64,000 nucleotides of DNA from a virus, in the IMG/VR virus record IMGVR_UViG_3300037501_000212. The stretch is one strand, 5' to 3'. Shown here piece by piece: positions 14,094 to 55,930 of this stretch. The position numbers were made by a program, and so were the translations under genes. Position 1 is the stretch's first letter; each line of letters opens with the position of its first letter. Below the pieces are notes generated by a model. The model made no database searches, had not been told where the DNA came from, and was given only the letters and a program-made list of their open reading frames with translations.

Positions 14094-14095
14094 GC

Positions 14096-16250: not shown

Positions 16251-16253
16251 TCT

Positions 16254-17598: not shown

Positions 17599-17600
17599 CC

Positions 17601-19166: not shown

Positions 19167-19313
19167 CATGGGCTGTAAAGGAAACTCCTTCAAAGCCAAG
19201 AGGAAGCGCTGAGTCAAGTCTGTTAAAGCTGGTGGAGCCAGCACAAGCAGCGCATATGCCATCTGCACCAAGAGCATAAAAGGCAAGAGCAAGAAGAATA
19301 GGAAGTAGCCCAA

Positions 19314-36168: not shown

Positions 36169-36199
36169 CAAATCCCGCACCGCAAAAGAGGAGAGTGAA

Positions 36200-40351: not shown

Positions 40352-41445
40352 TACCGCTATTCAAAGTATTCATGGATGGAGCAGTTGACACTGCGCTTTC
40401 CAAAGTGCTTCACTCTGGCTACATTGGCCAGGGCGAGAAGGTTCGGCAGTTCGAGGCAGCGCTTGGCAAGCGATTTGGCAACTGCAATGTGCTGGCATTG
40501 AGTGCTGGCACCCATGGGTTGCACCTTGCATTACGGCTGGCTGGAGTGGGAAAAGGTGATGAAGTAGTCACGACGCCACTGACTTGCACTGCCACCAACT
40601 GGCCTATTCTGATGCAAGGTGCAACACCAATTTGGGCTGATGTAAAGGACGACTTCAATGTTGATCCTGAATCAGTCAGAACAGCTATAACAGATCGCAC
40701 CAAAGCTATCATCTGTGTGCATTGGGGTGGCTATCCATGCGACATGGCGGAGTTGACAAAGATTGCTTACGACAACAATCTGGTGCTGATTGAGGATGCA
40801 GCCCATGCCTATGGAAGCGACTACAAGGGCATTCCAATAGGCAGCATGCCAGGCACCGATTACACCATGATGAGCTTTCAAGCAATCAAGCATCTGACAA
40901 CAGTCGATGGTGGTGCTCTTTTCTGCAAGACCAAGGAGCAGTATGACAAGGCCAAGTTGCTGCGCTGGTATGGTATTGACAGAGAAGGACCACGCACTGA
41001 CTTCCGCTGCGAGCAGCCAATAGCAGATTGGGGATACAAGTACCACATGAATGATGTCTGTGCTACTATTGGTCTGCAAAACATGGCAGCAGCTGACAGA
41101 AACATAGAAAGATGCAGAGCCAATGCTGCTTTGTACGACAGAGAGCTTGCAGGTGTGCCTGGGTTGAAGATTACTCAAACAGCTGATGATCGCAAGAGCT
41201 CTTATTGGCTGTACACAATCATGGTCGAGAATCGTAGCGAGTTCTGCTACATGATGGGAAGCAGAGGCATAGCAGTCAGCAGAGTGCATGAAAGAAATGA
41301 CAAGCATCCTTGCACCTCTGACTTTTGCTGCTTCCTTCCTAAGCTCGAAGAAGTTGTAAGCAAGCAAATTTGCATACCAGTAGGCTGGTGGCTTGGTGAT
41401 GACCAAGTTGAGCACATCATAGAGTCAATCAAAGGAGGATGGTGA
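40348..41445 (+). CDS. DegT/DnrJ/EryC1/StrS-family PLP-dependent sugar aminotransferase
   Basis: GYIGQGEKVRQFEAALGKRFG, SAGTHGLHLALRLAGVGKGDEVVTTPLT, EDAAHAYGS, and the SFQAIKHLTTVDGG Lys motif. Confidence 0.85.
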   Translation: MIPLFKVFMDGAVDTALSKVLHSGYIGQGEKVRQFEAALGKRFGNCNVLALSAGTHGLHLALRLAGVGKGDEVVTTPLTCTATNWPILMQGATPIWADVKDDFNVDPESVRTAITDRTKAIICVHWGGYPCDMAELTKIAYDNNLVLIEDAAHAYGSDYKGIPIGSMPGTDYTMMSFQAIKHLTTVDGGALFCKTKEQYDKAKLLRWYGIDREGPRTDFRCEQPIADWGYKYHMNDVCATIGLQNMAAADRNIERCRANAALYDRELAGVPGLKITQTADDRKSSYWLYTIMVENRSEFCYMMGSRGIAVSRVHERNDKHPCTSDFCCFLPKLEEVVSKQICIPVGWWLGDDQVEHIIESIKGGW

Positions 41446-41930
41446 TGTTTTCAGCTTGGCGAAACAGGTTGCTGCTTGACTATGCACAGTGGATCATAGA
41501 CCACCCACTTACAAGAGAGATGGGTGCTCCAATTGATGGAGAAGGTCCAGTCTATTTTTCTGCAATTGATGATTCTGAGATAGAAATTTGCAAGGCTCTT
41601 TGGGAAGGCAATGACTACTTGCGCATTCCTCCACCCAGAAGGATTTGGAACAGCCAATTCTGCAATGACTTTGACAAGTGGCGCGATGCATTCTGGAGAA
41701 TGGCAAATGCATTGGCAGATGGGGTTGAAAGGATACACACAGAAGGCATTGACAAGTTCCACTTGCCAGTGTTTGGCAGAGGTATTCAGCTGGTGCTTGC
41801 TGCTCAAGCAGTGCAGCTCAAAAGCGTAACAGTGGGGTGCTACAAATTCCCGTACGCAGTTGAACAGTTTTTGGAATATGCCATTCGCAGGCCAGAAATA
41901 TCTTACATCAAGGAGGTGTTGGTATGGTAG
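41439..41930 (+). CDS. hypothetical protein
   Basis: 163-aa ORF overlapping both neighbours within the sugar island. Confidence 0.5.
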   Translation: MVMFSAWRNRLLLDYAQWIIDHPLTREMGAPIDGEGPVYFSAIDDSEIEICKALWEGNDYLRIPPPRRIWNSQFCNDFDKWRDAFWRMANALADGVERIHTEGIDKFHLPVFGRGIQLVLAAQAVQLKSVTVGCYKFPYAVEQFLEYAIRRPEISYIKEVLVW

Positions 41931-42577
41931 AGGAGAGGAAAGAGCATCCAGGATCCAGAGAGCTTTATGATCTGGTTGCAAACTGGCATCCTGGGCCATT
42001 GTTTTTCAGCAAGACCTTCGGGTGGGAGCGATGGGGCTTGCTTGGTGTGCTTGCAGATTTCTTCTTGCACTACACACCTGGATGCATCATAGAGATTGGT
42101 GCATGCGAGACGTCCATATTCTTCTCTGCACTGGCTGAGAAACATGGTCGTAACGTTTACCACTGCGACATACAACAGTCAATCATCGAGAACTGCAAGA
42201 CCGTGCCAGGTTACTTTGGCAAGAACTCAAGAACCTTTGTGATGCCATCAGATGAGTTCTTTGCTTGGTACAGAAAGGAAATGCCGGAAAGAGCAGCATT
42301 GGTATTTATTGATGGCGATCACATGTACGATCAGGTTCGCAAGGACTTCATCAATGCACTTGCTGTGCTGGATGAGGAAGGTGGTTACATATTCTTGCAC
42401 GACACAGCTCCGCCAGATGCTGAATGGATAGGTCCTACTCGCTGTGGCACCGTCTACAAACTGCGCAGGGAGATAGAGCAAAGCGGAAACTTCGACATCT
42501 TCACATTCAGGAACTCTGCTTGGGGTGTTGGGCTTAGCATTGTTCGCTTGCGTGTGAATGGATACGATGGTGACTGA
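41924..42577 (+). CDS. class I SAM-dependent methyltransferase (Methyltransf_24-like)
   Basis: CIIEIGACETSIFFSALA, LVFIDGDHMYDQVRKDF, GGYIFLHDT. Confidence 0.65.
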   Translation: MVEERKEHPGSRELYDLVANWHPGPLFFSKTFGWERWGLLGVLADFFLHYTPGCIIEIGACETSIFFSALAEKHGRNVYHCDIQQSIIENCKTVPGYFGKNSRTFVMPSDEFFAWYRKEMPERAALVFIDGDHMYDQVRKDFINALAVLDEEGGYIFLHDTAPPDAEWIGPTRCGTVYKLRREIEQSGNFDIFTFRNSAWGVGLSIVRLRVNGYDGD

Positions 42578-43581
42578 TGGCAACTAACTTCCTACCAAAC
42601 TGGGTCCACAACAGGAAGCCATTCGAGTCTAAGATTGCAATACTTGTGACTGGATGGCCTGGCCACATCAAGTGGATGAAGTACACTCTAAGCAGCTACG
42701 TTGCAACTGGCGCATTTGTTCTTCTGGCTTACGACAGCCACATCAAATTTGACGATTACAAAATAAGCGTAGCTGATCACTTTCCACCGATAGATGTGTT
42801 TGTCTTGCCTCATGCTGTTGTTTTGAAACACGCCACCTGGGACGCGGACAAGCGCAATGGCTGGCTTTGGAACTTCATATATGGAGCACAACAGCTCTTA
42901 GGCTTCGGTTTCGAGCATATTCTGACGATCAACAGCGACTGCGCAATTGACAAGCCTGAAGGGATTCACCAGCTGATTGAGTTGCTTGGCTCTGCAGACA
43001 TGATGTCCCAGTCGGTTGAGTATAATGACGCCGAGCAAAAGGATCCCAAGAGTATACACACTTGCAGCATGCTGTTTCGACGCTCGGCATTGGACTCAGT
43101 GTGTTCCTACTTCAAAAAGGAGATGAGCCATGCCGGACCAGAATCGTACAGTCCAGAGCTGCTGCTGCTTGAGGCACTCAAAGAGCTTGGGCTCAAGTTG
43201 CAGCCAACACCCAAAGTGCCTTTGTTCCCAAAAGGACACCCATTCGAAGGAGCAGTTGACCACTACCAGTCCTACAATGAGGATTCGACATGGAAGGAGG
43301 TCATCGGATTCCGTAACTTGTGTGCTGAGAACGATACCGCAGGCATAGAGAGACTGCCACCATTGCCAGGCAAGTATTTTGATCTGCGAGATGGTGGCAG
43401 GCTGCTGCCAGGGTATGAGAGGGAGAGCTTATACCACTACTACTTGTCCGGAGGGGATCTCCGCTATCTCTGGATGTTTTGGGACAAGGATGAAGACTCA
43501 TGGTACGACAGGAGAAACTACTCCGTAGACCATTACGGCTCCCAGCCAGTCTACAATACAAAGGGGGACACCATCGTATGA
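42577..43581 (+). CDS. hypothetical protein, paralogue A (candidate GT-A-like transferase)
   Basis: 334 aa. Clearly related to the next ORF (ILVTGWPGH/VLLTSHPGN; LLAYDSH/VLAYDNY; NSDCAIDKPEG/NGDCVLEKPEN; GFRNL/GFRHI). Confidence 0.55.
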   Translation: MATNFLPNWVHNRKPFESKIAILVTGWPGHIKWMKYTLSSYVATGAFVLLAYDSHIKFDDYKISVADHFPPIDVFVLPHAVVLKHATWDADKRNGWLWNFIYGAQQLLGFGFEHILTINSDCAIDKPEGIHQLIELLGSADMMSQSVEYNDAEQKDPKSIHTCSMLFRRSALDSVCSYFKKEMSHAGPESYSPELLLLEALKELGLKLQPTPKVPLFPKGHPFEGAVDHYQSYNEDSTWKEVIGFRNLCAENDTAGIERLPPLPGKYFDLRDGGRLLPGYERESLYHYYLSGGDLRYLWMFWDKDEDSWYDRRNYSVDHYGSQPVYNTKGDTIV

Positions 43582-44510
43582 CTGTAACATTGCAGCAACT
43601 GATTGATGACCCGAACACAAGCGATAAGGACAGGGAAGACTACAAGGTTGTCCTTGATCGCTACAAGGCCTGTGATGTTTGGGCCAACAAGATTCATGGC
43701 AAGGTTGGTGTGCTTTTAACATCACACCCTGGCAATCGTGCCTTTTTGAAGGCTTCTGCAGAAAGCCACAAGCAGCTTGGATTCTGGATGGTGCTGGCTT
43801 ACGACAACTATCTTGATCCATCAAGGCCTGACCTGGAATGGAATCACATCATGCCGTATCGAGATGTTACGGACATGTTCAACACCATTCTGGTTGGTCC
43901 ACACCAAACCTGGGGTGGTGTGCTGTATCCATATTTCTGGCTGCTGAGAATTGGTGTTGAAGCTCTGAATTGTTTTGATTACATATACTGTGCAAATGGA
44001 GACTGTGTTCTGGAAAAGCCTGAGAACTTCCCAGCTCTTATGGACATGCTTGGTGATGGAGACATCATGGGGTGTGGTTGGGAAGACAATGGCAGTCGTC
44101 CGATCTTCAACACCACTGGCTTCATCGCAAAGTCCAAAGCAGCCAGTGCTATAATGAAGCACTTCCAGGATCATCTGATTCCACTGGCTGCTTATGAAGA
44201 GTCAGCTCCAACCTTCGGCAACACAGAAGGTCGCTTTGCCAGAGCCATCTTGGACCTTGGGTTGAAGGTGGTAAAGGTTCCTACCAACCCAAACGACACT
44301 CAGTTGTCAAGATCAAGTGGCACTTGGTACGAGAAGGTTGGCTTCCGCCATATCCATGGCGAGTACAACAAGGCATACAGATACAAGCTTGTGCCACCTG
44401 AGACAAAATACCTTGACAGCAGGTACTTCAACAAAGCTGAGCTTGATCTGTTGGATAAATATCACGAGACAAAAGACCAAAAGGTGCTTGAGGAATGGTG
44501 GGCGAAATAA
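43578..44510 (+). CDS. hypothetical protein, paralogue B (candidate GT-A-like transferase)
   Basis: 310 aa from MTVTLQQL, with an ATGA overlap. Tandem paralogue of 42577-43581. Confidence 0.55.
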   Translation: MTVTLQQLIDDPNTSDKDREDYKVVLDRYKACDVWANKIHGKVGVLLTSHPGNRAFLKASAESHKQLGFWMVLAYDNYLDPSRPDLEWNHIMPYRDVTDMFNTILVGPHQTWGGVLYPYFWLLRIGVEALNCFDYIYCANGDCVLEKPENFPALMDMLGDGDIMGCGWEDNGSRPIFNTTGFIAKSKAASAIMKHFQDHLIPLAAYEESAPTFGNTEGRFARAILDLGLKVVKVPTNPNDTQLSRSSGTWYEKVGFRHIHGEYNKAYRYKLVPPETKYLDSRYFNKAELDLLDKYHETKDQKVLEEWWAK

Positions 44511-44989
44511 CAAGAGTGCAGGAGCTTAGGCAGCTTCTGCTTACTATATTGGAAACAGCCTTCCAGGAGAATGGTGATGTTGTCGCCAAGCAGCAGCTTG
44601 GTGTCAGTGTCTCAAATGCCATAAAGAAGGATGGTGGTGTTCTTGTCATACAGAACCAGAATGTTGAGGTGTATGCAAGGATAGTGCCGTCAATGGTAAA
44701 GGCCATACGCATCTGTGACATGATTGATGAGCAACCAATCAAGCTGCTGCCAACACCAATGTCAGAGCCAACTGTTGTTGATTCTGTAGCTGGCGACCCT
44801 GTGGATGATTGCTGCAAATATTTGCTAAGCAAAGGCACCAAATGGGAGGATATGCAAGAAATAGTGAAGTCAAGATATCTTAAGCATGTTGTAGAAATGG
44901 CTGGCAAGAAATCAGAAGCTGCTAAATGGCTTGGGATTGGCCCAACATACATTTGCAAGCTGCTAAAACAACACAATGGAGGAAGCTAA
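44495..44989 (+). CDS. protein with a C-terminal Fis-type HTH (HTH_8)
   Basis: The C-terminus RYLKHVVEMAGKKSEAAKWLGIGPTYICKLLKQH matches the Fis/NtrC-type HTH pattern. Confidence 0.5.
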   Translation: MVGEITRVQELRQLLLTILETAFQENGDVVAKQQLGVSVSNAIKKDGGVLVIQNQNVEVYARIVPSMVKAIRICDMIDEQPIKLLPTPMSEPTVVDSVAGDPVDDCCKYLLSKGTKWEDMQEIVKSRYLKHVVEMAGKKSEAAKWLGIGPTYICKLLKQHNGGS

Positions 44990-44990
44990 A

Positions 44991-45416
44991 ATGAAACCGA
45001 GAACCATCATGCTGCTGCTTTTCGTCTTCACAATTGGAGTCCTGTTCACTACGGTCCCTACTTTTGCTCAGCAGGCAAGTGGAGTCAAAATCATGTGGAA
45101 CCAGCCAGCCGCTGAGCTACCTTTTGTCAAGGAGTGGATCGTCTACGAAGGCAACGCAGCCAATCCTACGACCGAGCTGGCAAGGTTGCAAAACACAGGT
45201 GGCCCATTGACAACCAATGTTCCAATCAATGTTAGTGGAGCTCCTGGCACAAAGGTGCAGAAGTACTATTCTGTGTCTGCAGTTGGCATGAATGGCAAGG
45301 AGACAGCCAAGACACCTGGCACTACATCTGGTGGAATCTCGTACTTGGAATTTACGATTCCCTATCCGGACGTGACTGCTCCGCAGTCAGTCATCTTTGA
45401 GATTGTGTTCAAATGA
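44991..45416 (+). CDS. secreted/exported protein, FN3-like
   Basis: Signal-peptide-like MKPRTIMLLLFVFTIGVLFTTVPTFAQQ. The body (IMWNQP...EWIVYEG...YYSVSAVG) resembles a fibronectin-III-like beta-sandwich. Confidence 0.5.
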   Translation: MKPRTIMLLLFVFTIGVLFTTVPTFAQQASGVKIMWNQPAAELPFVKEWIVYEGNAANPTTELARLQNTGGPLTTNVPINVSGAPGTKVQKYYSVSAVGMNGKETAKTPGTTSGGISYLEFTIPYPDVTAPQSVIFEIVFK

Positions 45417-46327
45417 AGAAGCTGCTTTTCAACTTGATGCTGGCTATGGCGCTGCTGCCTTCATTGGCAGCAGCACAGGCACTTCACTACTACCAGAGCA
45501 ACCCAGGCAAGTCAGTCAATGTTGCTTGGGACCACAGCAAGTTTACCATCAGTTGTTCTGGAACACTTGTTGAAATCAGTCCTGCCACCACCAGCTTTGT
45601 TTGCGATGGCAGGACATATACAGTTGTTTGGACTGGTGGAGCAGTTAGGATAACTGGCAAGAATGCAGACGGCACAGATTATTTGTACAATGGCAGCATC
45701 AAGTACAAATATCGTGCAGTAGTCACTGGCGGATCGAGCCAAATAAGCATTGTAGCCAATGGGCCAGGCAGCTATCCATTCCTTATTCCAAATGCAGGCC
45801 AATACCATGTTTGGGGATATGTAAGGCGTGATTCCACGACTGGCAGGAACTCCTTCTTTTACAGCATGGACGGCTCTGCACAAAGAATATGGGCAACACC
45901 ATCCGGAACACCAGATGGAGAGTGGCTTTGGGATAGGATCAACGATGGGACGTCGCTTGGTGAACAAGGACCTATAGTTGTGTTTCAGCTGGCATCTGGT
46001 CAGCACACCTTGGTGCTGCTGGAGCGAGAGGCTGGTACAGGACTAAATGGAATGGTTGTTGCACCAACTTCTGTTGCATCTCCATCTGCAGAGACTGAAC
46101 TGCTGTTTGGCGAAGCAACTGGAAATACACTGCCAATAAACCTTAATACTCTTGGTGACATTCGCATCGAAGTGGCTGCTGTGCTGACAGATTCTGGTGG
46201 AGAGAAAATGTCAGCTTATGCAAAGTCAACAGATCCTGCCTATGCAACTGTTGATGGTGTTGCCAAGGGATGGATGGTTTCTTCAAGCTTGAGCAACCCT
46301 TCTGGTGTCGTGATGGCTGCCGAATAG
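45413..46327 (+). CDS. secreted/exported hypothetical protein
   Basis: Signal peptide MKKLLFNLMLAMALLPSLAAAQA. 304 aa. Confidence 0.5.
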   Translation: MKKLLFNLMLAMALLPSLAAAQALHYYQSNPGKSVNVAWDHSKFTISCSGTLVEISPATTSFVCDGRTYTVVWTGGAVRITGKNADGTDYLYNGSIKYKYRAVVTGGSSQISIVANGPGSYPFLIPNAGQYHVWGYVRRDSTTGRNSFFYSMDGSAQRIWATPSGTPDGEWLWDRINDGTSLGEQGPIVVFQLASGQHTLVLLEREAGTGLNGMVVAPTSVASPSAETELLFGEATGNTLPINLNTLGDIRIEVAAVLTDSGGEKMSAYAKSTDPAYATVDGVAKGWMVSSSLSNPSGVVMAAE

Positions 46328-46336
46328 GAGGCTGCT

Positions 46337-46849
46337 ATGCCTGTCATGCACATACCAATCGATCTGTATGTTCCAAAGCAATCTTCTTCAGTTGCTGGCA
46401 ACTGCTATTGGAATGTCAGCACATTGACAGCTCTGGATGACGGCCATTGGGAGTTTGTCAAGGATGTTGATGGCTACATCTATGGAAGAGTGCTTGTGCC
46501 AAATAACCTGGCAGCTTCCCCAGCAGCCAAGATAGAGCTTTCCGTGAAGGCTCCTTCTTCTGGTGGTAATCGCAGTGTCAGATTCAAAGTCGCTGCACAC
46601 CCAGTGGCTGATGGCGAATCCATGAATCCATCAGCACTTTGCACACCAATTGAGCAGTTGTTGGATCTTGGTGCAACTGAGTATGCAAGAGGAATAATGG
46701 AATTCACTTTGCCAGTCACTGGCTCCTTTCCAATCGTTGCAGGAGATCTGCTGCTGGTGGAAATATGCCACTACGGATCACACATTAGCGATCTGCTGGC
46801 AGTGAACTGCCATCTTGATGAAGCCTACTTGGTCGTAGAGGTGGTGTGA
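46337..46849 (+). CDS. hypothetical protein
   Basis: 170-aa ORF with a GGAGG RBS. Confidence 0.5.
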   Translation: MPVMHIPIDLYVPKQSSSVAGNCYWNVSTLTALDDGHWEFVKDVDGYIYGRVLVPNNLAASPAAKIELSVKAPSSGGNRSVRFKVAAHPVADGESMNPSALCTPIEQLLDLGATEYARGIMEFTLPVTGSFPIVAGDLLLVEICHYGSHISDLLAVNCHLDEAYLVVEVV

Positions 46850-47904
46850 TGGGCTTGACCTTGCATGCAACTTCTGGCAGCAAAGCTGGAACTCTTTGCT
46901 GCGAGAATTTCTTTACCAAGAAGCAGCCATGGTCAATATGTTCTTGGATAAAGTACAACACCAGTGTTGGCTTCACATATACGCAAGGCAAAGGGCTTAT
47001 CGTACACAGCTCTCCGACAGCAATGTACACCTCAGAGGATGGATATACGTACAGCGAGGTTTCTGCAGAAGGAGATGGCATTGTTGCCAATGTTTGGTTC
47101 CACTCTGCTTATGTTCGCAATGGCAACAACCATTACGGATACTGCAATGGCAAATTGATGATGAGAGTCAGTGGATATGATCCGTCTGCATTTGATGCAG
47201 AGCTTCAAGTTGGTGGCATCAAGTACAGTGAAACAGAAAAGTATGCTGGTGTTGTTGGGCAAATGGCAGCACTCAAAGCTTGGCATGCTGCTTTGACTCC
47301 TGAGGAGATCAGGGCAGAGATGTACCAGTATGCACCAGTAAGATTTGCTGATCTTGGTGGGTACTGGCCTATGCTTGTGTATGGTGGAGAAGCTTACACA
47401 GTCAGAGATCAATCTGGCAATGGCAAACATTTTACTACAACAGATGCAATGGATGCCAGTGCCTTTGAATACTGGTTCCTGCCAGAGCCAAAGGGACCGC
47501 ATATTTCTCCGTTCAAACCAAAACATGGTGGGAACAGAGTTCCACGCTTGCTGAATCCAATTCGTACTTCAATTTGCTACGGACATGATACTGGTGTTAC
47601 AGAGGAAGTGAAGGCTCCTCTTGCACATTTTGTCACGAATGGTAAGCTTAGAAACAATCCTTACAATGACTATGAAGTTATAGAGCTTGATTTCGGTCAG
47701 TGGGCTGAGATGGTTGGAACAATTCGCATGCTTGGAACTGTTACTTGCCAAGTAAACACGTACAGATCATATGGGCCAGGCACTTTGACAAAGTATTACA
47801 AGACAGGCGCAACATCTTCTGGTTGCGAGGCTGACACTTGGAAGGTATTTTCAACTTCATTCGTAAGCCAAGGCTACGTAAAGGTGAGATTCGAGGCTTT
47901 ATGA
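46846..47904 (+). CDS. LamG/concanavalin-like lectin-fold protein with a shared fibre C-terminal module
   Basis: NVWFHSAYVRNGNNHYGYCNGKLMM...LQVGG...QMAALKAWHAALTPEEI is LamG-like (Laminin_G_3 style). The C-terminal ~100 aa are homologous to the C-terminus of 51015-52556. Confidence 0.55.
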   Translation: MMGLTLHATSGSKAGTLCCENFFTKKQPWSICSWIKYNTSVGFTYTQGKGLIVHSSPTAMYTSEDGYTYSEVSAEGDGIVANVWFHSAYVRNGNNHYGYCNGKLMMRVSGYDPSAFDAELQVGGIKYSETEKYAGVVGQMAALKAWHAALTPEEIRAEMYQYAPVRFADLGGYWPMLVYGGEAYTVRDQSGNGKHFTTTDAMDASAFEYWFLPEPKGPHISPFKPKHGGNRVPRLLNPIRTSICYGHDTGVTEEVKAPLAHFVTNGKLRNNPYNDYEVIELDFGQWAEMVGTIRMLGTVTCQVNTYRSYGPGTLTKYYKTGATSSGCEADTWKVFSTSFVSQGYVKVRFEAL

Positions 47905-48803
47905 GAAATGTTCTGGTAACTGGTGGAGCAGGCTTCCTTGGAAGCCACTTATGCGAAGAGCTTATCAAACACGATGATGTTTCAAGAGTTGTCTGTGTTG
48001 ATAACATTGTGACTGGCAGCTGGTCAAATGTAGACCACCTGATCGGCTGCAAGAAGTTCAAAATTTATGAATGTGATGCTATTGCTGCTTCTCAAATTGA
48101 CTGGAACTGGCTTGGTGGGCTTGATGAGATATATCATCTGGCATCTCCAACTTCTCCAGTGGCAATTAACAACTATAAGGAGATGACACGCAAGGTCAAT
48201 TCAATTGGAACATGTGCACTCATAAACCTTGCAAGCAAGCAAAAGGCCAAGATGCTTTTTGTTTCATCTGTCAAGGTCTATGGAGAATGTGATCGTGTTT
48301 CTGACTACATATTCGGGAAAAGAGTTGGTGAAGAGCTGTGTGCGCATGCTGGCCACAAGATTGCCAGGCTTGCCAGTGTGTATGGTCCTCGCATGGCTTT
48401 GAATGACTCAAGAGTTATTCCAGTTTTCATAACAAGGACTTTGCTTGGCCAGCCCATTCAGCTTTGGAATGGTGGCAATCAGGTTGACTCCTTCTGCTAT
48501 GTTGATGATGTTGTGAAAGGTCTTGTAAGCTACATGTCTTCAAGCAAGAATGGAGTAATAGAGTTTGGTGCTGAAAATGGCATCACCATAGCTGCGCTTG
48601 CAGAGAAGATTATGCAGCTGATTGGCACGACTGTTCCAGCTTGCACAACAGCAGTGAATGTTTCAGAAGAGTGCCATAAGGTTGTTGACATAAACAAGGC
48701 AAGGTCAGCATTGGGCTGGCAGCCAGCAGTCACCTTGGGGGAGGGGCTGCAATTGACAATCAACTATTTCAAAGAGGAAATGAAGAAGAGGAGAGATCTA
48801 TGA
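47901..48803 (+). CDS. NAD-dependent sugar epimerase/dehydratase (extended SDR, UXS-like)
   Basis: VLVTGGAGFLGSHLCEELI, VCVDNIVTGSWSNVDHL, SSVKVYG, Y..GK. ATGA overlap with the previous gene. Confidence 0.8.
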   Translation: MRNVLVTGGAGFLGSHLCEELIKHDDVSRVVCVDNIVTGSWSNVDHLIGCKKFKIYECDAIAASQIDWNWLGGLDEIYHLASPTSPVAINNYKEMTRKVNSIGTCALINLASKQKAKMLFVSSVKVYGECDRVSDYIFGKRVGEELCAHAGHKIARLASVYGPRMALNDSRVIPVFITRTLLGQPIQLWNGGNQVDSFCYVDDVVKGLVSYMSSSKNGVIEFGAENGITIAALAEKIMQLIGTTVPACTTAVNVSEECHKVVDINKARSALGWQPAVTLGEGLQLTINYFKEEMKKRRDL

Positions 48804-49507
48804 ACAAGATCAAGAAATGCTTATTCACATTGGCAACCAAAGGCTATGAAGAAGAGATGATGGAGCTGACACTGCCGCTCCTCAAGCAGTATGCAGACAA
48901 GATAAGAGCAGAGTTTCACATCATAGAAGGCAGAAAATTCCCAGAATGGCCTGTGCAGTGTGAAAAGCTGCAGATCTTTGATCTTGGCAGACAGATGGGC
49001 AATGATTGGAACATCTACATTGACTCGGATGCTTTGGTGCATCCTGAGATGATAGATGTGACGACATTGATACAAAAGGACACGGTGCTGCATGCTGGGA
49101 TGGATTATGCAAATGTCCGATGGCTGTATGATGAGTACTTCCTGAGAGATGGACGCAATATCGGAAGTTGCAATTGGTTCACTGTTGCCAGCGATTGGTG
49201 TCTTGATTTGTGGCGAATGCCAGACGATTTGACGCCAGAAGATGTTGCAGCTCGCATCATTCCAACAGTTGATGAGGAACTGACTGGCATGAAGACCAGC
49301 TTGAATCTTGCAGATGACTTCTTGCTCGGTCGCAACATAGCCAGGTTTGGCCTGAAGTTCAGACCATTGTATCAAATTCTTCCAGAGGTTGGGCTTGGCA
49401 ACAGTTTCTTCCTATGGCACCAATACACAAAGACGCCAGAGCACAAGCTTGAGGAGATGAAGCAAGTGCTGGCAGGCTGGCGACTTTTCCAGCCGTATGC
49501 CAAGTGA
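48800..49507 (+). CDS. possible GT-A-fold nucleotide-sugar transferase
   Basis: 235 aa with a DxD-like IYIDSDALVHPE after an N-terminal Rossmann-like segment. Weak assignment. Confidence 0.4.
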   Translation: MNKIKKCLFTLATKGYEEEMMELTLPLLKQYADKIRAEFHIIEGRKFPEWPVQCEKLQIFDLGRQMGNDWNIYIDSDALVHPEMIDVTTLIQKDTVLHAGMDYANVRWLYDEYFLRDGRNIGSCNWFTVASDWCLDLWRMPDDLTPEDVAARIIPTVDEELTGMKTSLNLADDFLLGRNIARFGLKFRPLYQILPEVGLGNSFFLWHQYTKTPEHKLEEMKQVLAGWRLFQPYAK

Positions 49508-49515
49508 GGTGGCTT

Positions 49516-50052
49516 ATGAAAAAATACAAGCTGCCAAAGATAAATGGTTGGATGAGTGATGAGGAGATGTATTGGCTTTATGAAAAGGCCAAGCTGATGG
49601 CTTCCATTGCTGAGATTGGATGCTGGCGTGGTCGCAGCACTCATGCATTGCTGTCTGGATGCACAGGTCCGGTCTTCGCAATAGACACATTTGAAGGAAG
49701 CCCAAGTGAAATTGACAGTGCTCACAGCGAAGTTGCCAGTCATGACATCAGAAGGGAATTCTTGAACAACCTGAGGAAGTTCAAAAACTTAGTTCCAATT
49801 TGCATGGACAGTGTTTCTGCGTCAAGATATTTTGCAGAAGAGTCAATAGACATGGTGTTCATTGATGGCAGTCATTCTTACAAGGATGTGTTGGCTGATA
49901 TTTGGAGATGGAAGCCAATATGCAGATGGCTTCTGTGTGGGCATGATCGTGACCAGGATGGTGTGCCGAAGGCTTTAAAGAAGCTTGGGCTAAAAATTAA
50001 AAAGGAGGCTGGCACAATTTGGTCTGTTGATATGACGGAGGTGCAAAAATGA
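49516..50052 (+). CDS. class I SAM-dependent methyltransferase (Methyltransf_24-like)
   Basis: IAEIGCWRGRSTHALL, MVFIDGSHSYKDVLADI. GAGGTGG RBS before ATG 49516. Confidence 0.65.
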   Translation: MKKYKLPKINGWMSDEEMYWLYEKAKLMASIAEIGCWRGRSTHALLSGCTGPVFAIDTFEGSPSEIDSAHSEVASHDIRREFLNNLRKFKNLVPICMDSVSASRYFAEESIDMVFIDGSHSYKDVLADIWRWKPICRWLLCGHDRDQDGVPKALKKLGLKIKKEAGTIWSVDMTEVQK

Positions 50053-51008
50053 AGGCACTTCTTGACAACGACACAATCCAAATTGAGATTACCAACCACT
50101 GCCACAAACGCTGTGCCAACTGCACTCGCTTTGTTGGGCATGTCCAGAAGCAATACCACATGGACTTTGATACCTTCAAACATGCTGTTGACAGTCTGGT
50201 TGGCTTCCCACATATGGTTGGCATCATGGGTGGCGAACCATTGCTGCATCCAGAGTTTGAAAGGTTCTGTGAATATGCTTTGAGCAAGATTCCTCGCATA
50301 CAGCTTGGTCTGTGGTCAGCCTTTCCAGAAGGCCATGAAAGCTACAGAGAAACGATCTGCAAAACATTTGGAAACATATTGCTAAACGACCATACCAGGG
50401 CTGACATCATGCACCATCCGTTCTTGGTTGCAATAGAGGAAGTGGTGCAAGATAAGGGCAAGATGTGGAACAAGATCAACAAGTGCTGGGCACAAGAGTC
50501 TTGGTCGCCATCTATAAATCCGCATGGTGCTTACTTCTGTGAAATGGCAGCTGCCTTTGCAATGTTGTTTGAAGGAACTGTAAACTTCATGCCTGGTTGG
50601 CCAATTGAGAGCAGATGGTGGGAGAGAATTCCAAAGGATTACACTGCCCAGATGGAGTGGTTCTGTCCACTTTGTGGTGGAGCTGCGCAGCTTAAGAGGA
50701 GAAGTAGCTTAGACAAGTTTGATGACATATCTCCATTGAATTTGAAGCGATTGAAGCCAATCTCGCAGAGAATCAGAGCTGGTAAGTACAAACTGCACAG
50801 CCTTATAGAAGTTGGCAGTGAGCAGGAAATGGGGGAGATGCAGTCTTATAAGAATCAAGGCTATCGAGATGTCATTGCTGCCCGCTACAGAATCTTCTTG
50901 ACACACAATGAACTTGGATTCAATGATCCCAAGCTGATGAGAGTCGGTCGTAAGATGGAGATGCAACCAACTTACATTGACAAATTAAAAGCGAGGTATG
51001 CAGCATAG
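50049..51008 (+). CDS. radical SAM enzyme
   Basis: IEITNHCHKRCANCTRF (CX3CX2C) followed by GIMGGEPLLHPEF. 319 aa. Confidence 0.75.
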   Translation: MKALLDNDTIQIEITNHCHKRCANCTRFVGHVQKQYHMDFDTFKHAVDSLVGFPHMVGIMGGEPLLHPEFERFCEYALSKIPRIQLGLWSAFPEGHESYRETICKTFGNILLNDHTRADIMHHPFLVAIEEVVQDKGKMWNKINKCWAQESWSPSINPHGAYFCEMAAAFAMLFEGTVNFMPGWPIESRWWERIPKDYTAQMEWFCPLCGGAAQLKRRSSLDKFDDISPLNLKRLKPISQRIRAGKYKLHSLIEVGSEQEMGEMQSYKNQGYRDVIAARYRIFLTHNELGFNDPKLMRVGRKMEMQPTYIDKLKARYAA

Positions 51009-51014: not shown

Positions 51015-52556
51015 ATGGCATGGGTAACTAACACTTGGAATACACCTGGAGTTACTAACTGGACTGTTCCTGCTGGTGTTTCCAGTATACGTATTCGAGT
51101 ATGGGGTGCAGGTGGCGGAGGTGGTGGAGCCAACAACAATGCATATTACAAAGATGCAGGTGGCGGTGGTGGCGGAGGCGGCTTTGCAGAGGTTACCAAT
51201 TACGCAGTTACTCCTGGTTCAAACCTTTCTATAACAGTAGGCAATGGAGGCAACAGAGGAGGCATATCTGGCACTTCGGGTGGTAACGGCTCTTTGTCTT
51301 CTGTGAGAGACGGCAACTTAGCTTTCATATGTGCAGCCAATGGAGGACAAAGAGGTAATGGCGGCAATATGATTCCTCCAGCTGCAGGAGGAAATGGTGG
51401 TATAGGCAATGCCGGAAATATTTTTAAAGCTGGCGGATCTGGAGCCTACGCCAGTGGAGACAGAGGCGGATCTGGTGGTGGTGCTGGCGGTGCCAACAAC
51501 AATGGCAATGGAAATAATGGAAATGGCAGGCCAGGAATTAACACAGGTTATCCGTCTTTAGGAGGTGCTGGAGGAAACGCAGACAGCAACGGCAATGATG
51601 CTGGAGGCAGAGGCGGCAACTCTGTAATGAACAACAACGCTTCTGCCAACACAGATGGTACTTGGCCTGGAGGCGGTGGTGGTGGACACCATGGCAATGG
51701 AGACACTGGGTATGGAGGCTATGGCGCTGCTGGTGGAGTTGTCATATTTTACAGCATTGCCAGTTCCAGCAGTCGGTCTTCAAGCTCCAGTTGTTCATCT
51801 TCCAGCTGCTCATCTTCAAGCAGCTCTTCAAAATCAAGCTCCAGTTCCAGCAGCAAGATACCGTCCATTTCCAGTTCCTCTTCATCAAGCAGCTCCAGCA
51901 GCAGTCAAGGATCATCTTCGAGCAGTTCAAAAAGCATGTCATCCAGCTCGAGCAGCATGTCTGCTGCTTGGCAAATTGAAGATGTTGTTCTAACAGGATC
52001 TGTCAGCAGCAGTTCCAGCAGCAGCAAATCGTCTTCTTCTTCCAGCAGCAGCCGTGGAAGCTCTTCTTCATCCAGTTCCAGTCGGTCAAGCAGTTCTTCG
52101 TCTTCAGTTTCAAGAAGCAGTTCTTCGAGCTCAAGCAGCATGTCGTCTTCATCCAGCTCCAGTCGCTCAAAGAGCTCTTCGTCTTCAAGCTCCAGCAGCC
52201 ACGCAGCTTTGACAACTGTTTGGGGTCAATCAACTGGATACAGCGAGGGCATTGCCAAGCCAATGGCTGGAAATTGGGATGTAGAAGCTGGCAGCATCAG
52301 TGGCTCTGGCGATTCTGAGAAGATGGTGCTTTCCAGTTACGAGTCTTACAGTGAATCAGATCCTTTCAATATCGGGAATATGGTTGGAGTTATCAAACTC
52401 AATCAATACAATGCTGGCTCCGGCAACGCTCCGACCATATACTACAAGACTGGTGTCACGCAAGCGTCTTGTGAGCAAGACCTTTGGCACCTTTACAACG
52501 GAGTCTCATTCAACTGCAAAGGTTGGGTAAAGATTCGGTTGTATAAGGCTGCCTAA
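51015..52556 (+). CDS. glycine-rich-domain fibre-like protein with an internal Ser tract
   Basis: N-terminal WNTPGVTNWTVPAGVSSIRIRVWGAGGGGGG...GGGGGGGGFAEV module. Ser tract at 51762-52199. C-terminal module shared with 46846-47904. Confidence 0.65.
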   Translation: MAWVTNTWNTPGVTNWTVPAGVSSIRIRVWGAGGGGGGANNNAYYKDAGGGGGGGGFAEVTNYAVTPGSNLSITVGNGGNRGGISGTSGGNGSLSSVRDGNLAFICAANGGQRGNGGNMIPPAAGGNGGIGNAGNIFKAGGSGAYASGDRGGSGGGAGGANNNGNGNNGNGRPGINTGYPSLGGAGGNADSNGNDAGGRGGNSVMNNNASANTDGTWPGGGGGGHHGNGDTGYGGYGAAGGVVIFYSIASSSSRSSSSSCSSSSCSSSSSSSKSSSSSSSKIPSISSSSSSSSSSSSQGSSSSSSKSMSSSSSSMSAAWQIEDVVLTGSVSSSSSSSKSSSSSSSSRGSSSSSSSSRSSSSSSSVSRSSSSSSSSMSSSSSSSRSKSSSSSSSSSHAALTTVWGQSTGYSEGIAKPMAGNWDVEAGSISGSGDSEKMVLSSYESYSESDPFNIGNMVGVIKLNQYNAGSGNAPTIYYKTGVTQASCEQDLWHLYNGVSFNCKGWVKIRLYKAA

Positions 52557-52567: not shown

Positions 52568-55500
52568 ATGCCGTGGGGCAATAACATATACACAAATGCG
52601 GGTAACGTTACCTGGACTGTTCCGTCTGGTGTTACCAATGTATTGGTACGAGCCTGGGGTGGTGGCGGTGGCGGCGGTGGTGGTAACGCTACTCATGGCG
52701 GTGGAGGCGGTGGTGGTGGTGGCTTCGCACAGTTTAATGCGATGGCTGTCACTCCAGGCCAAAACCATGTTTTGACTGTTGGTAATGGCGGCAATGGAGG
52801 AGCTGCCAATGCCAATGGTACTGCTGGTGGCAACACAATTATCCGCTGGAGTAATAACGCCAATGCGATGATTGCTGCCAGAGGGTCTGCTGGCCAGCGA
52901 GGTGCTAATGGCGCTGGTGGTGCTGGTGGAACTGTCGCAACATCTACTGGAAACTTGGAGTATGCTGGTGGCAACGGAGCTGCCAAGGCCACTGTAAATC
53001 CGGGTTCTGGCGGTGGTGGTGCGGGTTCTGGTGGCAATGGCTCGGCTGGATCCAACGGAGCCAATGCAGCTGGCGGTGCTGGTGGAGCTGCAAACAACAA
53101 TGCTGTCATTCCAAGTGTAGCTGGCGGTGCCGGTGGCAATGCCGTACTTAATGGTAATGGCGGCAATGCACTCGGTCCGGGCGGTGGTGGTGCTGGTGGT
53201 GGCGCTACCAACAAAGTAGGTGGCAGAGGTGGCGTAGGTCGTATCGAAATTTATTGGAGTATCGCTTCCAGTTCATCATCTTGCTCTTCTTCCAGTTGCT
53301 CCTCTTCATCTTGCAGTTCCAGCAGTTGTTCCTCGTCATGTTCAAGTTCCAGTAGCGGCACTTTGAGTTCTTCGTCCAGCTGCTCAAGCTCCAGTTGCTC
53401 AAGCTCCAGTTGCTCATCGTCGAGCAGCAGCAGCAGCAAACCTCCTTCTCCTTACGGATGGCAAACCGTAGTTTATACTCCAGGCAATTACACATGGACA
53501 GTTCCAGCTGGTGTAACTGGAGTAAGGATTCGTGCATGGGGTCCTGGTGGTGGCGGTGGTGGTTACAATGGCAATGCAGCCACTCCTGGAGGAGGTGGCG
53601 GAGGTGGTGGTTTTGCACAAGCCAACAACTTTGCAGTTACGGCCGGACAAAACCACAACATCGTAGTTTCTCCAGGAGTTGCGGGAGGAGCTGCTAATAG
53701 CGATCCTTCGTATGCCAACAACACGACTTTTTATCATACAAACAATGCTATTGTAATCCAAGCCACTTGTGGAAACAGAGGCAGAGTAACAGGGGCTGGT
53801 GGTGGATTTGGAAATGGCACCATAACTGCTTGGACCAATGTTTACAAAATGGGCGGCAATGGTGCCAACAACAATACAGCGACATATTCTGGTGCTGGTG
53901 GTGGTGGAGCCGGCACCACTGGCAATGGGTCGCCTGGCAACAACAACGGCTCGGGAGCTGGAGGAGGCGCTGGAGGTCTTGGCGACAATGGATCTACTGA
54001 TGTAGCGAACGGAGCTGGTGGCAACGGAGGAAATGCAGCCAGTGCAGGGTTCTTTGTGGGTGGTGGAGGTGGTGGAGGGAACAGTCTGTTCCGTGCGGGA
54101 GGAAATAGTGCAGATGGCAAGTTAGAATTGTACTTTAGTGTTCCGAGTGTTAGCAGCTCCAGCTCTTCATCGTCCAGCAACAGCAGCTCCAGTTCTTCAT
54201 CCAGTTCTTCATCAAGCTCTCCAGCAGCAGTAAGCAGTTCGTCCAGCTGCAGCAGCTCCAGCTCTTCATCGTCCAGCAACAGCAGCTCCAGTTCTTCATC
54301 CAGCTCCAGCAGCAGCTCTTCAAGCAGCTCCAGCTCCAGATCAAGCTCGAGCTCCAGTTCTTCTTCGTCCAATTCTTCGTCCAGTTCTTCAAGCAGCTCG
54401 AGTCGGAGTTCTTCAAGCAGCTCCAGCTCCAGATCAAGCTCGAGCTCCAGTTCTTCTTCAAGCAGGTCTTCATCCAGTTCTTCATCAAGCTCCAGCAGCA
54501 GTTCTTCAAGTAGCTCCAGATCAAGCTCGAGCTCCAGCAGCTCTTCAAGCAGGTCTTCATCCAGTTCTTCATCCAGCTCCAGCAACAGCTCTTCAAGCAG
54601 CTCTTCATCAAGCTCCAGATCAAGCTCCAGCAGCAGTTCTTCAAGCAGCTCCAGATCAAGCTCTAGCTCCAGCAGCTCTTCAAGCAGGTCTTCATCCAGC
54701 TCTTCAAGCAGTTCGAGTCGTAGCTCTTCATCCAGCTCTTCAAGCAGTTCGAGTCGTAGCTCTTCATCCAGTTCTTCAAGCAGCTCCAGATCAAGCTCGA
54801 GTTCCAGCAGCTCTTCAAGCTCAAGCAGTTCGAGTCGTAGCTCTTCATCCAGTTCTTCAAGCAGTTCGAGTCGTAGCTCTTCATCCAGTTCTTCAAGCAG
54901 CTCCAGATCGAGTTCGAGCTCCAGTTCTTCTTCAAGCTCAAGCAGTTCGAGTCGTAGCTCTTCATCCAGCTCTTCAAGCAGTTCCAGATCGAGTTCGAGC
55001 TCCAGTTCTTCTTCAAGCAGGTCTTCATCCAGCTCTTCAAGCAGTCGTTCTTCTTCAAGCAGCAGCCGTTCTTCATCCAGCAGTTCCAGCAGTTCCATCC
55101 AAAGCAGCTCCAGCAGCTCAAGATCTTCTTCGAGCTCCAGCTCCAGCTCCAGATCAAGCTCGAGCTCCAGCAGCTCTTCAAGCAGGTCTTCATCCAGTTC
55201 TTCAAGCAGTTCGAGTCGTAGCTCTTCATCCAGCTCTTCAAGTAGCTCCAGATCAAGCTCGAGCTCCAGTTCTTCTTCAAGCAAGTCTTCATCCAGTTCT
55301 TCAAGCAGTCGTTCTTCTTCAAGCAGCTCCAGCAGTTCCAAACAAAGCAGCTCCAGCAGTTCCAGATCAAGCAGTTCCAGTTCTTCTTCAAGCAGGTCTT
55401 CATCCAGTTCTTCAAGCAGTTCGAGTCGTAGCTCTTCATCCAGCTCTTCAAGCAGTTCCAGATCAAGCTCGAGCTCCAGTTCTTCTTCAAGCAGGTCTTC

Positions 55501-55930
55501 ATCCAGCTCTTCAAGCAGTCGTTCTTCTTCAAGCAGCTCGAGTCGTAGCTCTTCAAGTAGCTCTTCTAACAGCAGTTCTTCAAGCTCGAGCAGGTCCAGT
55601 TCCAGTTCCAGCTCCAGATCAAGCTCGAGCAGCAGCTTGTCATCTTCTTCATCAAGCAGCAGTCGAAGTCGCTCGCTCAGCAGCTCTTCATCCAATTCTT
55701 CGTCCAGCTCTTCTTCAAGCAGATATGGAACACCAGAGCTGGTTGAGCCAAGATGGAAGTTCAAGGCATACAAATATCGCTCAGAGTTCATGCTGCAACC
55801 AATGCAGCTTCGCATAGAACTAAAGGCTTGCATTGGCAAGCCCAAATTTGTGAACAGAGTATTGACATTGAGAACTAACCTTATAGCCCAGCAAGCCAGG
55901 CCAACCTTTGTGGCAAGGCTGGGAAGATGA
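52568..55930 (+). CDS. giant fibre-like protein: two glycine-rich modules, a (SSSSC)n linker, a ~523-codon poly-Ser tract and a basic C-terminal domain
   Basis: 1120 aa. Modules begin YTNAGNVTWTVPSGVTNVLVRAWGGGGGGGGG and YTPGNYTWTVPAGVTGVRIRAWGPGGGGGG. Ser tracts at 53267-53437 and 54152-55720 are in frame with both modules. Confidence 0.7.
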   Translation: MPWGNNIYTNAGNVTWTVPSGVTNVLVRAWGGGGGGGGGNATHGGGGGGGGGFAQFNAMAVTPGQNHVLTVGNGGNGGAANANGTAGGNTIIRWSNNANAMIAARGSAGQRGANGAGGAGGTVATSTGNLEYAGGNGAAKATVNPGSGGGGAGSGGNGSAGSNGANAAGGAGGAANNNAVIPSVAGGAGGNAVLNGNGGNALGPGGGGAGGGATNKVGGRGGVGRIEIYWSIASSSSSCSSSSCSSSSCSSSSCSSSCSSSSSGTLSSSSSCSSSSCSSSSCSSSSSSSSKPPSPYGWQTVVYTPGNYTWTVPAGVTGVRIRAWGPGGGGGGYNGNAATPGGGGGGGGFAQANNFAVTAGQNHNIVVSPGVAGGAANSDPSYANNTTFYHTNNAIVIQATCGNRGRVTGAGGGFGNGTITAWTNVYKMGGNGANNNTATYSGAGGGGAGTTGNGSPGNNNGSGAGGGAGGLGDNGSTDVANGAGGNGGNAASAGFFVGGGGGGGNSLFRAGGNSADGKLELYFSVPSVSSSSSSSSSNSSSSSSSSSSSSSPAAVSSSSSCSSSSSSSSSNSSSSSSSSSSSSSSSSSSSRSSSSSSSSSSNSSSSSSSSSSRSSSSSSSSRSSSSSSSSSSRSSSSSSSSSSSSSSSSSRSSSSSSSSSSRSSSSSSSSSSNSSSSSSSSSSRSSSSSSSSSSSRSSSSSSSSSSRSSSSSSSSSSRSSSSSSSSSSSRSSSSSSSSSSRSSSSSSSSSSSSSSSRSSSSSSSSSSSRSSSSSSSSSSRSSSSSSSSSSSSSSSRSSSSSSSSSSRSSSSSSSSSSRSSSSSSSSRSSSSSSRSSSSSSSSSIQSSSSSSRSSSSSSSSSRSSSSSSSSSSRSSSSSSSSSSRSSSSSSSSSSRSSSSSSSSSSKSSSSSSSSRSSSSSSSSSKQSSSSSSRSSSSSSSSSRSSSSSSSSSSRSSSSSSSSSSRSSSSSSSSSSRSSSSSSSSRSSSSSSSRSSSSSSSNSSSSSSSRSSSSSSSRSSSSSSLSSSSSSSSRSRSLSSSSSNSSSSSSSSRYGTPELVEPRWKFKAYKYRSEFMLQPMQLRIELKACIGKPKFVNRVLTLRTNLIAQQARPTFVARLGR
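54152..55720 (+). repeat. 1.57-kb degenerate tandem Ser-coding repeat
   Basis: Blocks of about 10-11 codons of S9-10 followed by R, N or K. The core AGATCAAGCTCGAGCTCC, or a near-identical variant, recurs at about 54338, 54431, 54518, 54788, 55151, 55250 and 55460. Confidence 0.9.

Follow-up and report, generated by a model that had tools for sequence, protein, structure and literature searches.

A repeat-generated poly-serine array in a phage tail-fibre protein and its association with GT9 glycosyltransferase genes

The IMG/VR virus record IMGVR_UViG_3300037501_000212 was analysed over a stretch of 64,000 nucleotides, referred to here as the window. Siphophage genes for a large terminase and for portal, major capsid, tape measure and tail proteins are on its plus strand, whereas those for replication occupy the minus strand at both window ends; no tRNA genes were found in the window. 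The subject of this report is a poly-serine array of 523 codons within the gene for a tail-fibre-like protein of 1120 residues, where it occupies residues 529 to 1051 and follows the frame of the plus-strand open reading frame (ORF; Table 1). The array is real, translated in the plus frame and generated by repeats, and poly-serine of this kind is associated in viral genomes with genes for glycosyltransferases of the GT9 family.

The serine array and the fibre protein that carries it

The tract is close to pure serine, as the original prediction from the sequence had described it: 468 of its residues are Ser (89.5%), and the remainder comprise 37 Arg, 6 Asn, 2 Lys and 10 others, giving 39 positive and no negative charges. 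When cut at every non-serine codon the tract fell into 56 units, most often 11 codons long (19 units), and the spacing between Arg, Lys or Asn residues was exactly 11 in 19 of 44 cases. Spacings of 10 to 12 residues made up 57% of the total (11% under random placement; none of 20,000 shuffles equalled the observed value), and the autocorrelation of the tract had its maxima at lags of 11 and 22 residues. The anticipated periodicity of about 10 to 11 residues was thus recovered, and Tandem Repeats Finder gave it a formal repeat structure, with periods of 93, 99, 117 and 135 nt at 70 to 80% match and a unit of 81 nt present twice at 97%.

The underlying repeat consists of degenerate 33-nt tandem units of three types, starting with AGA, AGG or CGT, which recur in order and thereby form a 99-nt higher-order repeat. 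Younger segmental duplications are also present in the tract (56 nt at 98%, 81 nt at 97% and 191 nt at 90%), and together with the unit types and the higher-order repeat they support the proposed origin by repeated duplication and divergence. The core motif AGATCAAGCTCGAGCTCC, which had been expected to recur, was present in six exact copies and five more with one or two mismatches, against a chance expectation of 0.01; the expected spacing of 87 to 100 nt proved too narrow, as the copies lie 81 to 210 nt apart. The motif is also found, with two mismatches, at position 35702 in the tail protein gene. It was tried as a marker of relatives and rejected, its four IMG/VR matches (L003 to L006) having neither poly-Ser nor a GT9 gene. 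All six serine codons are used in the tract, in proportions close to the genome background, indicating that selection acted on the amino acid and not on a single DNA repeat.

Over the tract the six frames contain 0 (+0), 1 (+1), 13 (+2), 80 (-0), 0 (-1) and 3 (-2) stop codons, in agreement with the predicted scarcity of stops in several frames on both strands. The plus frame runs uninterrupted from two Gly_rich_2 domains, joined by a Ser/Cys linker, into the tract and on to a tail of 69 residues without repeats. The 703-residue Leu/Glu ORF on the minus strand is open because the reverse complement of a third codon base followed by AG or TC always reads CTN (Leu) or GAN (Asp/Glu); under random synonymous recoding 0.4 stops are expected in this frame, and none was observed. 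Its Leu codons are TTR in 3% of cases (97% CTN), whereas TTR makes up 26 to 31% in real genes on either strand. Frames +2 and -2 are likewise short of stops relative to recoding (13 against 79 expected and 3 against 53), for which there is a single cause, the scarcity of T-ending codons before AGY. The observed/expected ratio of the T|AG codon junction was 0.21 in 19 ordinary genes and 0.05 to 0.15 in the nine serine tracts of the window, and CTAG occurred at 0.17 of expectation in the window. Selection holding the +2 and -2 frames open was considered and rejected, since avoidance of the T|AG junction is genome-wide; its specificity for the codon junction is further evidence that frame +0 is translated. 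Recoding, Leu codon use and codon-pair bias agree with the original prediction that the minus-strand ORF is a shadow and not a gene. As a separate observation, T3|A1 codon pairs are avoided in the plus-strand genes of the whole window (observed/expected 0.28), an unusually strong effect.

The location of the tract on a fibre protein, also predicted, was supported by profile, model and fold comparison. Gly_rich_2 (PF21722; gathering cut-off 24.3 bits) matched the 1120-residue protein in two stretches with 74.4 bits and a 513-residue paralogue with 71.3 bits. The best fold matches of the domain 1 model were the structures 7YPX and 7YFW of the fibre of cyanophage Pam3 (E 4e-8, TM 0.60-0.66, 27-28% identity; for 7YPX E 3.8e-8, TM 0.66, 28% identity); the model also matched tail-tip chains of mycobacteriophage Bxb1 (9D93) and then the glycine-rich domain of the ALK/LTK receptors. 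By both profile and fold, the N-terminal domains of the carrier resemble Gly_rich_2 fibres such as the Pam3 fibre and the Bxb1 tail tip, but the top three sequence homologues lack a poly-Ser array, the nearest having a short (SPSx)n linker instead. No homologue was found for the 69-residue C-terminal tail. The Ser/Cys linker between the domains is a regular (SSSSC)n sequence with 8 Cys, and long (S6-7 C R)n arrays were seen in two phages bearing a GT9 gene (L159 and L139); the regular recurrence of Cys among serines suggests cross-linking through disulfides or metal.

Two short-read contigs of SRR12686701 are 100% identical to the window and break off within the tract, one at 54181 and the other at 55508; they reach 30 and 212 nt into it at 100% identity. 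Because both contigs end there, the interior (54182-55507) rests on the window's own assembly alone. In contig L038 (11361-12508, equivalent to window positions 51409-52556), automatic calling fragmented the 513-residue fibre gene and called antisense ORFs in its Ser blocks.

Table 1. Coordinates of the array, its carrier gene and the other features of the window discussed in the text.
Feature	Position	Strand	Basis or remark
Poly-Ser array	54152-55720	+	523 codons, modal 11-codon unit; AGA-, AGG- and CGT-type units
Gene for 1120-residue tail-fibre-like protein	52568-55930	+	ORF; Pfam Gly_rich_2; start of the Logan gene caller also 52568
Gly_rich_2 domain 1, residues 9-230	52592-53257	+	PF21722; AlphaFold model pLDDT 95
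(SSSSC)n-type Ser/Cys linker of 59 residues between the fibre domains	53261-53437	+	Translation, in frame between the domain matches
Gly_rich_2 domain 2, residues ~291-527	53438-54148	+	Second Pfam stretch; 48% identity to domain 1
Basic, non-repetitive C-terminal tail of 69 residues, with stop codon	55721-55930	+	Translation
Leu/Glu ORF of 703 residues	53842-55953	-	Shadow of the Ser frame, no gene
Paralogous 513-residue Gly_rich_2 fibre protein	51015-52556	+	Poly-Ser blocks 51753-51965 and 52002-52205
Tail tube protein with C-terminal poly-Ser tail of ~20 residues (26577-26636)	26079-26639	+	NCBIfam tail_tube_6XGR 89 bits, cut-off 60
870-residue tail protein with 206-residue poly-Ser (35222-35839) near the C-terminus	33263-35875	+	PHROG 1101
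Small 65-residue protein directly after the capsid gene, C-terminal poly-Ser tail	23930-24127	+	Conserved in relatives
168-residue head/tail-module protein, N-terminal poly-Ser (24618-24665)	24615-25121	+	Same N-terminal tract in L042 and L050
Putative 78-residue ORF ending in poly-Ser, then KLS	35932-36168	+	Overlaps the annotated glycosyltransferase start; may not be a gene
Multidomain 1020-residue glycosyltransferase	36041-39103	+	GT9/TibC-like at ~36461-37450, methyltransferase-like middle, GT4 C-terminus
Rest of the sugar block	38994-51008	+	Four Methyltransf_24, CmcI-type O-methyltransferase, DegT/PseC-like aminotransferase, LamG-domain protein, SDR epimerase/dehydratase, 235-residue DxD-motif protein, radical SAM
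HldE-half ORF, adenylyltransferase	16254-16739	+	Between terminase and portal genes
HldE-half ORF, kinase	16726-17598	+	Between terminase and portal genes

Serine and threonine tracts in other virion proteins and in relatives

A six-frame scan located nine serine tracts in the window, exclusively in structural genes of the plus strand, and the 523-codon tract is the extreme case of this virion-wide pattern. Single tracts are found in the tail tube protein, the 870-residue tail protein, the small protein encoded directly after the capsid gene, the 168-residue head/tail-module protein and the putative 78-residue ORF; the remaining four are the two blocks of the 513-residue paralogue and, in the 1120-residue protein, the Ser/Cys linker and the main tract. 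A C-terminal poly-Ser tail is absent from the major capsid protein. The tract of the 870-residue protein is interrupted by evenly spaced Lys and Arg residues (coefficient of variation 0.35 versus 0.88; 0 of 20,000 shuffles), and its DNA has no clear periodicity despite the regularity of these basic residues. The original prediction had offered, as speculation, that regularly spaced basic residues could act as marks for a transferase. In other phages bearing a GT9 gene the spacers are Leu, Ile, Cys-Arg or Glu, so that Arg is no general requirement. The ORFs of the 65-residue and 78-residue products were seen to end alike, with poly-Ser, KLP or KLS, and a stop.

Relatives were collected by means of the capsid protein, as the 80 retained of 149 IMG/VR contigs encoding a related one, with 64 to 91% identity to that of the window (the capsid family); the closest cultured phages by this protein are actinophages, at 35 to 39% identity. 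Homopolymer tracts of Ser or Thr were present in 69 of the 80 capsid-family loci, and 178 of 185 tracts lay on the coding strand. Almost every tail tube protein has a C-terminal tail of some 10 to 33 residues, which is poly-Thr in most phages; in one sub-clade, to which this phage belongs, the tail is poly-Ser, and a few phages have a mixture of Ser and Glu. The small post-capsid protein is conserved as well, with a Ser/Thr tail of 12 to 164 residues. Since the tails are kept across orthologues, hydroxyl amino-acid tails are old in this lineage, with their length drifting freely and only Ser and Thr being interchangeable. Some capsid-family phages were seen to have two copies of the small protein, one short-tailed and one long-tailed.

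Orthologous poly-Ser tracts measured 51 and 49 residues at 99.1% identity of the flanks, 104 and 109 residues at 95.4%, and 119 and 106 residues at 85%, and every length difference seen between orthologous tracts preserves the reading frame. The original prediction of a hotspot for length variation is upheld in so far as orthologous Ser/Thr tracts of related or near-identical phages do differ in length; for the 523-codon tract itself the support is indirect.

Searches of GenBank phages, protein databases, IMG/VR and JGI returned no close relative spanning the 523-codon tract. A megablast of the 48-58 kb region against GenBank phages gave no match, no record of the exact 1120-residue protein was found, and IMG/VR scans with the peptide of fibre domain 1 and with the tail protein were both without a match. 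A scan of GTDB genomes with the radical SAM profile gave no match, and hence no clue to a host or prophage, and a scan of JGI metagenomes with the radical SAM protein gave one distant contig of 1.2 kb only. One distant relative (L009, the same contig as L001) has the gene order epimerase, DxD-motif protein, radical SAM and Gly_rich_2, as in the window. A 2411-residue protein encoded on its plus strand, at L009:4346-11581, was noted to combine an N-terminal domain resembling a beta-helix with some 1900 residues of SPSx tetrapeptide repeats behind it. In place of this protein the public annotation gives a pair of shadow ORFs ('LGD/LGE') on the minus strand, and (SPSx)n linkers are also present in the adjacent Gly_rich_2 protein and in the following ORF.

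Sugar genes of the phage and their association with poly-serine

A block of sugar genes of about 13 kb lies between the tail and fibre genes. It begins directly after the tail protein gene with the multidomain glycosyltransferase, whose true start codon is probably near 36200, and continues up to the fibre genes. Homologues of the N-terminal 420 residues of this enzyme are named ADP-heptose:lipopolysaccharide heptosyltransferase or GT9, several of them with PF01075, and are usually fused to GT4. For the model of the GT9 domain (pLDDT 84), TibC (4RAP/4RB4), a protein serine O-heptosyltransferase, accounted for the top 12 and for 20 of the 22 top Foldseek matches, with E-values of 1e-10 to 1e-8 and TM scores of 0.47 to 0.57, and the lipopolysaccharide enzymes WaaF and WaaC came next at about 1e-7. 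Four Cys (query positions 288, 294, 302 and 326) are invariant in 30 homologues of the domain, in a region with pLDDT 77 to 91. TibC is reported to have a four-cysteine iron finger (Lu et al. 2014), to which the cysteines of the phage domain may correspond.

Two further ORFs, between the terminase and portal genes, match the halves of HldE, the enzyme of ADP-heptose synthesis that joins a heptose-7-phosphate kinase to a heptose-1-phosphate adenylyltransferase. The adenylyltransferase ORF scored 181.3 bits against NCBIfam rfaE_dom_II, for a cut-off of 181.5, and none of the capsid-family relatives has HldE-half genes at that position. The halves were seen to be separate ORFs in reversed order, with a cupin ORF (~15900-16250) beside them, and a caspase-like ORF (Peptidase_C14; 12799-13662) was noted just upstream of the terminase gene. 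At the other end of the sugar block, the radical SAM gene (50049-51008) encodes a CX3CX2C motif and conserved C-terminal cysteines and lies directly upstream of a Gly_rich_2 fibre gene. Among 31 radical SAM loci in IMG/VR, a Gly-rich gene directly downstream, as in the window, was present only in L007 and L009. Considered as a candidate modifier of a Ser/Cys peptide, the enzyme matched many maturases, but weakly and in its N-terminal part only. Scans for promoters and terminators gave no useful information.

To what extent GT9 genes and poly-Ser occur together was assessed in the 80 retained of 174 viral contigs from an IMG/VR scan with a profile of the GT9 domain, poly-Ser being defined stringently as at least 16 Ser in 20 residues within 10 kb. 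Such tracts were present in 50 of the 80 GT9 loci but in none of the 31 radical SAM loci, which have sugar genes and no GT9 (Fisher p = 1e-10), and in 8 of the 80 capsid-family loci (p = 3e-12). After de-replication, poly-Ser remained in 36 of 53 GT9 clusters, compared with 0 of 17 radical SAM clusters (p = 3e-7) and 6 of 52 in the capsid family. Of 107 tracts in the GT9 loci, 106 lay on the strand of the enzyme, and the longest measured 1129, 503, 452 and 405 residues. With a looser criterion (10 of 12 residues), GT9 loci had poly-Ser in 51 of 80 cases and poly-Thr in 0 of 80, whereas capsid-family loci had poly-Thr in 52 and poly-Ser in 10 of 80; the association with GT9 is thus specific to serine. 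A control search with DegT yielded no more than 3 loci.

The carriers of the tracts in GT9 loci are Gly_rich_2 fibres, gpJ-like tail proteins, and beta-helix and LamG proteins, together with a recurrent protein of about 300 residues with a Ser tail of 100 to 175 residues. About 20 GT9 loci share further genes of the window's sugar block. The capsid-family locus L105, which has poly-Ser, overlaps GT9 locus L144 (99.6% over 1.7 kb) and therefore represents a second genome that combines both; the two are pieces of one genome that overlap at the poly-Ser tract. The largest arrays were seen in the 188-kb contig L127, in proteins of at least 1561 residues (3-4685) and 2563 residues (13289-20977), each with more than 1100 serines and adjoining a GT9-like gene.

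Interpretation, alternatives and known systems

We interpret the tract as a length-variable, disordered stalk in the tail fibre and a putative acceptor for phage-encoded O-glycosylation, an interpretation to which we assign a probability of roughly 0.55. The array would have originated by tandem duplication of a 33-nt unit encoding ten serines and one basic residue, with higher-order grouping into 99 nt followed by divergence, and gain and loss of units would keep its length variable. In the infected cell the serine hydroxyls would be O-glycosylated by the phage's own enzymes, the TibC-like GT9 heptosyltransferase domain using ADP-heptose made with the two HldE-half ORFs, and the fused GT4 domain and the genes for amino-sugar and methyl transfer extending or modifying the glycan. 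The product may be a mucin-like bottle-brush that stiffens and extends the stalk and coats the particle, in which the length of the tract would determine how far the fibre reaches and how large its glycan load is. A tuning of glycan load had been suggested in the original prediction, and the sugar block, the TibC-like glycosyltransferase, the ADP-heptose genes and the co-occurrence with poly-Ser lend it circumstantial support, for a glycan that is itself predicted.

Several points weigh against this interpretation. Every glycosylation step is inferred, and the sugar genes could modify the host envelope instead. The match to TibC is at the level of the fold only (TM about 0.5, 16% identity), 3TOV, a generic GT9 structure, reaches nearly the same score, and a search of PDB sequences with the GT9 domain gave nothing for the single sequence and, with a profile, at best WaaF (E 0.011). 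The natural acceptors of TibC are serines in beta-helix repeats, not poly-Ser. With regard to the donor, the kinase ORF scored 220.7 bits against rfaE_dom_I (E 2.5e-65), below the cut-off of 345, and neither GmhA nor GmhB was identified among the window ORFs in the NCBIfam scan. In addition, poly-Ser is missing within 10 kb in 30 of the 80 GT9 loci, the co-occurrence statistics are only crudely corrected for relatedness, and the interior of the tract comes from a single assembly.

The strongest competitor, which we nevertheless regard as unlikely, is that the tract is an unglycosylated flexible linker or entropic brush, a hydrophilic spacer that tethers fibre domains and prevents sticking, with the sugar genes serving the host envelope or DNA. 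The short Ser/Cys and Ser linkers between folded domains of the same proteins fit this explanation, as do the mixed codon use, known also from polyserine linkers, the GT9 loci that lack nearby poly-Ser, and the poly-Thr tails of most capsid-family relatives, in whose examined DNA stretches no glycosyltransferase was seen. However, the co-occurrence of poly-Ser and GT9 is strong and specific, with no other homopolymer enriched, orthologous tracts swap only between the two hydroxyl amino acids, lengths of 523 to 1129 residues far exceed the needs of a linker, and the glycosyltransferase genes stand within the late structural operon.

A role at the level of DNA, in which the Ser-coding repeats are recombination modules that shuffle domains, or a contingency locus, and the peptide is a tolerated passenger, is improbable. 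Several genes do have their tracts at a boundary between domains, preceded by similar '...IY(W/F/Y)S(I/V/Y)...' strands, the core motif recurs in the tail protein gene, assemblies break at tracts and close relatives differ in tract length; against this, codon choice follows genome-wide usage and not one repeated sequence, orthologues retain the residue as Ser or Thr although their DNA has diverged, and all observed length changes are in frame. Still less probable is an artefact of assembly or annotation, by which the repeat was misassembled, collapsed or expanded, or the gene ends earlier or uses another frame. Both independent short-read contigs end within the tract, and gene callers err in such regions, but both contig ends enter the tract at full identity, 1569 nt without a stop lead in the same frame into a non-repetitive C-terminus, repeat copies that are 70 to 90% alike are resolvable, and dozens of other viral contigs have comparable arrays of 100 to 1129 residues. 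Finally, the 703-residue minus-strand ORF as a real, coiled-coil-like product can be dismissed: although it is uninterrupted and a gene caller picked such antisense ORFs in a related contig, its openness is a mathematical outcome of Ser codons, its CTN share compares with about 70% in real genes, it reads the Gly-rich domain beyond the tract as poly-Pro nonsense, every neighbouring gene between about 11.8 and 57.9 kb is on the plus strand, and codon-pair bias agrees with the plus frame.

A wider proposal, which we put forward tentatively, follows on from the glycosylated-stalk interpretation. There may be an undescribed, widespread class of uncultured phages (at least 36 IMG/VR clusters) with a mucin-like coat, in which Ser homopolymers ranging from tens of residues to over 1000 on fibres, tail tube, tail tip and head-associated proteins would be O-heptosylated by a phage TibC-like enzyme with ADP-heptose from phage genes, the switch from poly-Thr to poly-Ser in the capsid family possibly tracking acquisition of the enzyme. 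The literature searched on poly-Ser and poly-Thr phage proteins and on phage heptosyltransferases yielded no account of virion proteins with poly-Ser in combination with a phage GT9 enzyme. If the proposal is correct, glycosylated phage particles would be widespread and not a mycobacteriophage peculiarity, recognizable by a simple sequence signature, poly-Ser beside a TibC-like GT9 gene, and equipped with an acceptor module whose length can change through repeat gain and loss. Protein O-heptosylation would then extend from a few enterobacterial adhesins to viruses, with a bearing on phage reach, on sticking to hosts and matrices, on protease or immune evasion, and on glyco-engineering of particles for phage display or therapy. 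Since poly-Ser regions break short-read assemblies and mislead gene callers, such proteins are systematically under-reported in viral databases.

Several components of this picture are already known, namely polyserine linkers, serine-rich repeat adhesins, TibC-type heptosylation and mycobacteriophage virion glycosylation. Polyserine linkers reportedly occur in enzymes of Saccharophagus, Teredinibacter and Cellvibrio, with lengths of tens of residues (Howard et al. 2004). The tract resembles such linkers in being nearly pure Ser, in mixing all six codons and in its position between or after folded domains; it differs in its 523 residues, followed only by the 69-residue tail, in belonging to a virion protein and not to a secreted enzyme, and in its regular basic spacers and co-occurrence with a glycosyltransferase. 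The 59-residue Ser/Cys linker fits the polyserine linkers by length and interdomain position, though its carrier, too, is a virion protein. Linkers of this type in bacterial carbohydrate-active enzymes are mentioned in PMC2699552 and PMC6821194.

In mycobacteriophages, the subunits of capsid and tail tube are described as carrying glycans on C-terminal extensions (Freeman et al. 2023, Cell Host Microbe, as cited in PMC12619734). Common to that system and the present one are phage glycosyltransferases beside structural genes, and here the tail tube ends in a poly-Ser tail. The candidate acceptors here are instead near-homopolymers of 15 to 523 serines on at least eight proteins, fibres included, and the phage enzyme is GT9/TibC-like and accompanied by ADP-heptose genes. 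TibC and AAH, enzymes of the BAHT family, hyper-heptosylate the passenger domains of autotransporters (PMC8498110). Compared with these enzymes acting on TibA and AIDA-I, the phage enzyme has a similar GT-B/GT9-like fold, with TibC as its best structural match, a cysteine cluster after the catalytic domain, a repetitive surface protein as candidate acceptor and ADP-heptose as a plausible donor. In contrast to them, it shows no similarity at the sequence level, its domain is fused to methyltransferase-like and GT4 domains, and its candidate acceptors are disordered poly-Ser on virion proteins, without an autotransporter operon.

The serine-rich repeat glycoproteins (SRRPs) of Gram-positive bacteria form extended stalks by virtue of dense O-glycosylation (PMC6973325, PMC8249670). 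SRRPs and mucins share with the tract hundreds of residues of Ser-dominated tandem repeats, and their repeat number is variable. Unlike the tract, SRRPs have dipeptide-type repeats, accessory Sec export, GtfA/B and an LPXTG anchor, and mucins are rich in Pro and Thr; the scans of window ORFs with Pfam, NCBIfam or PHROGs revealed neither accessory Sec genes nor a GtfA/GtfB pair, and the 69-residue C-terminal tail of the 1120-residue protein has no LPXTG motif. With respect to size, a survey of 102 phage proteomes found the longest low-complexity region to be at most 115 residues (PMC6821194), and compared with this maximum the arrays described here reach 523 residues in the window and at least 1129 in related loci.

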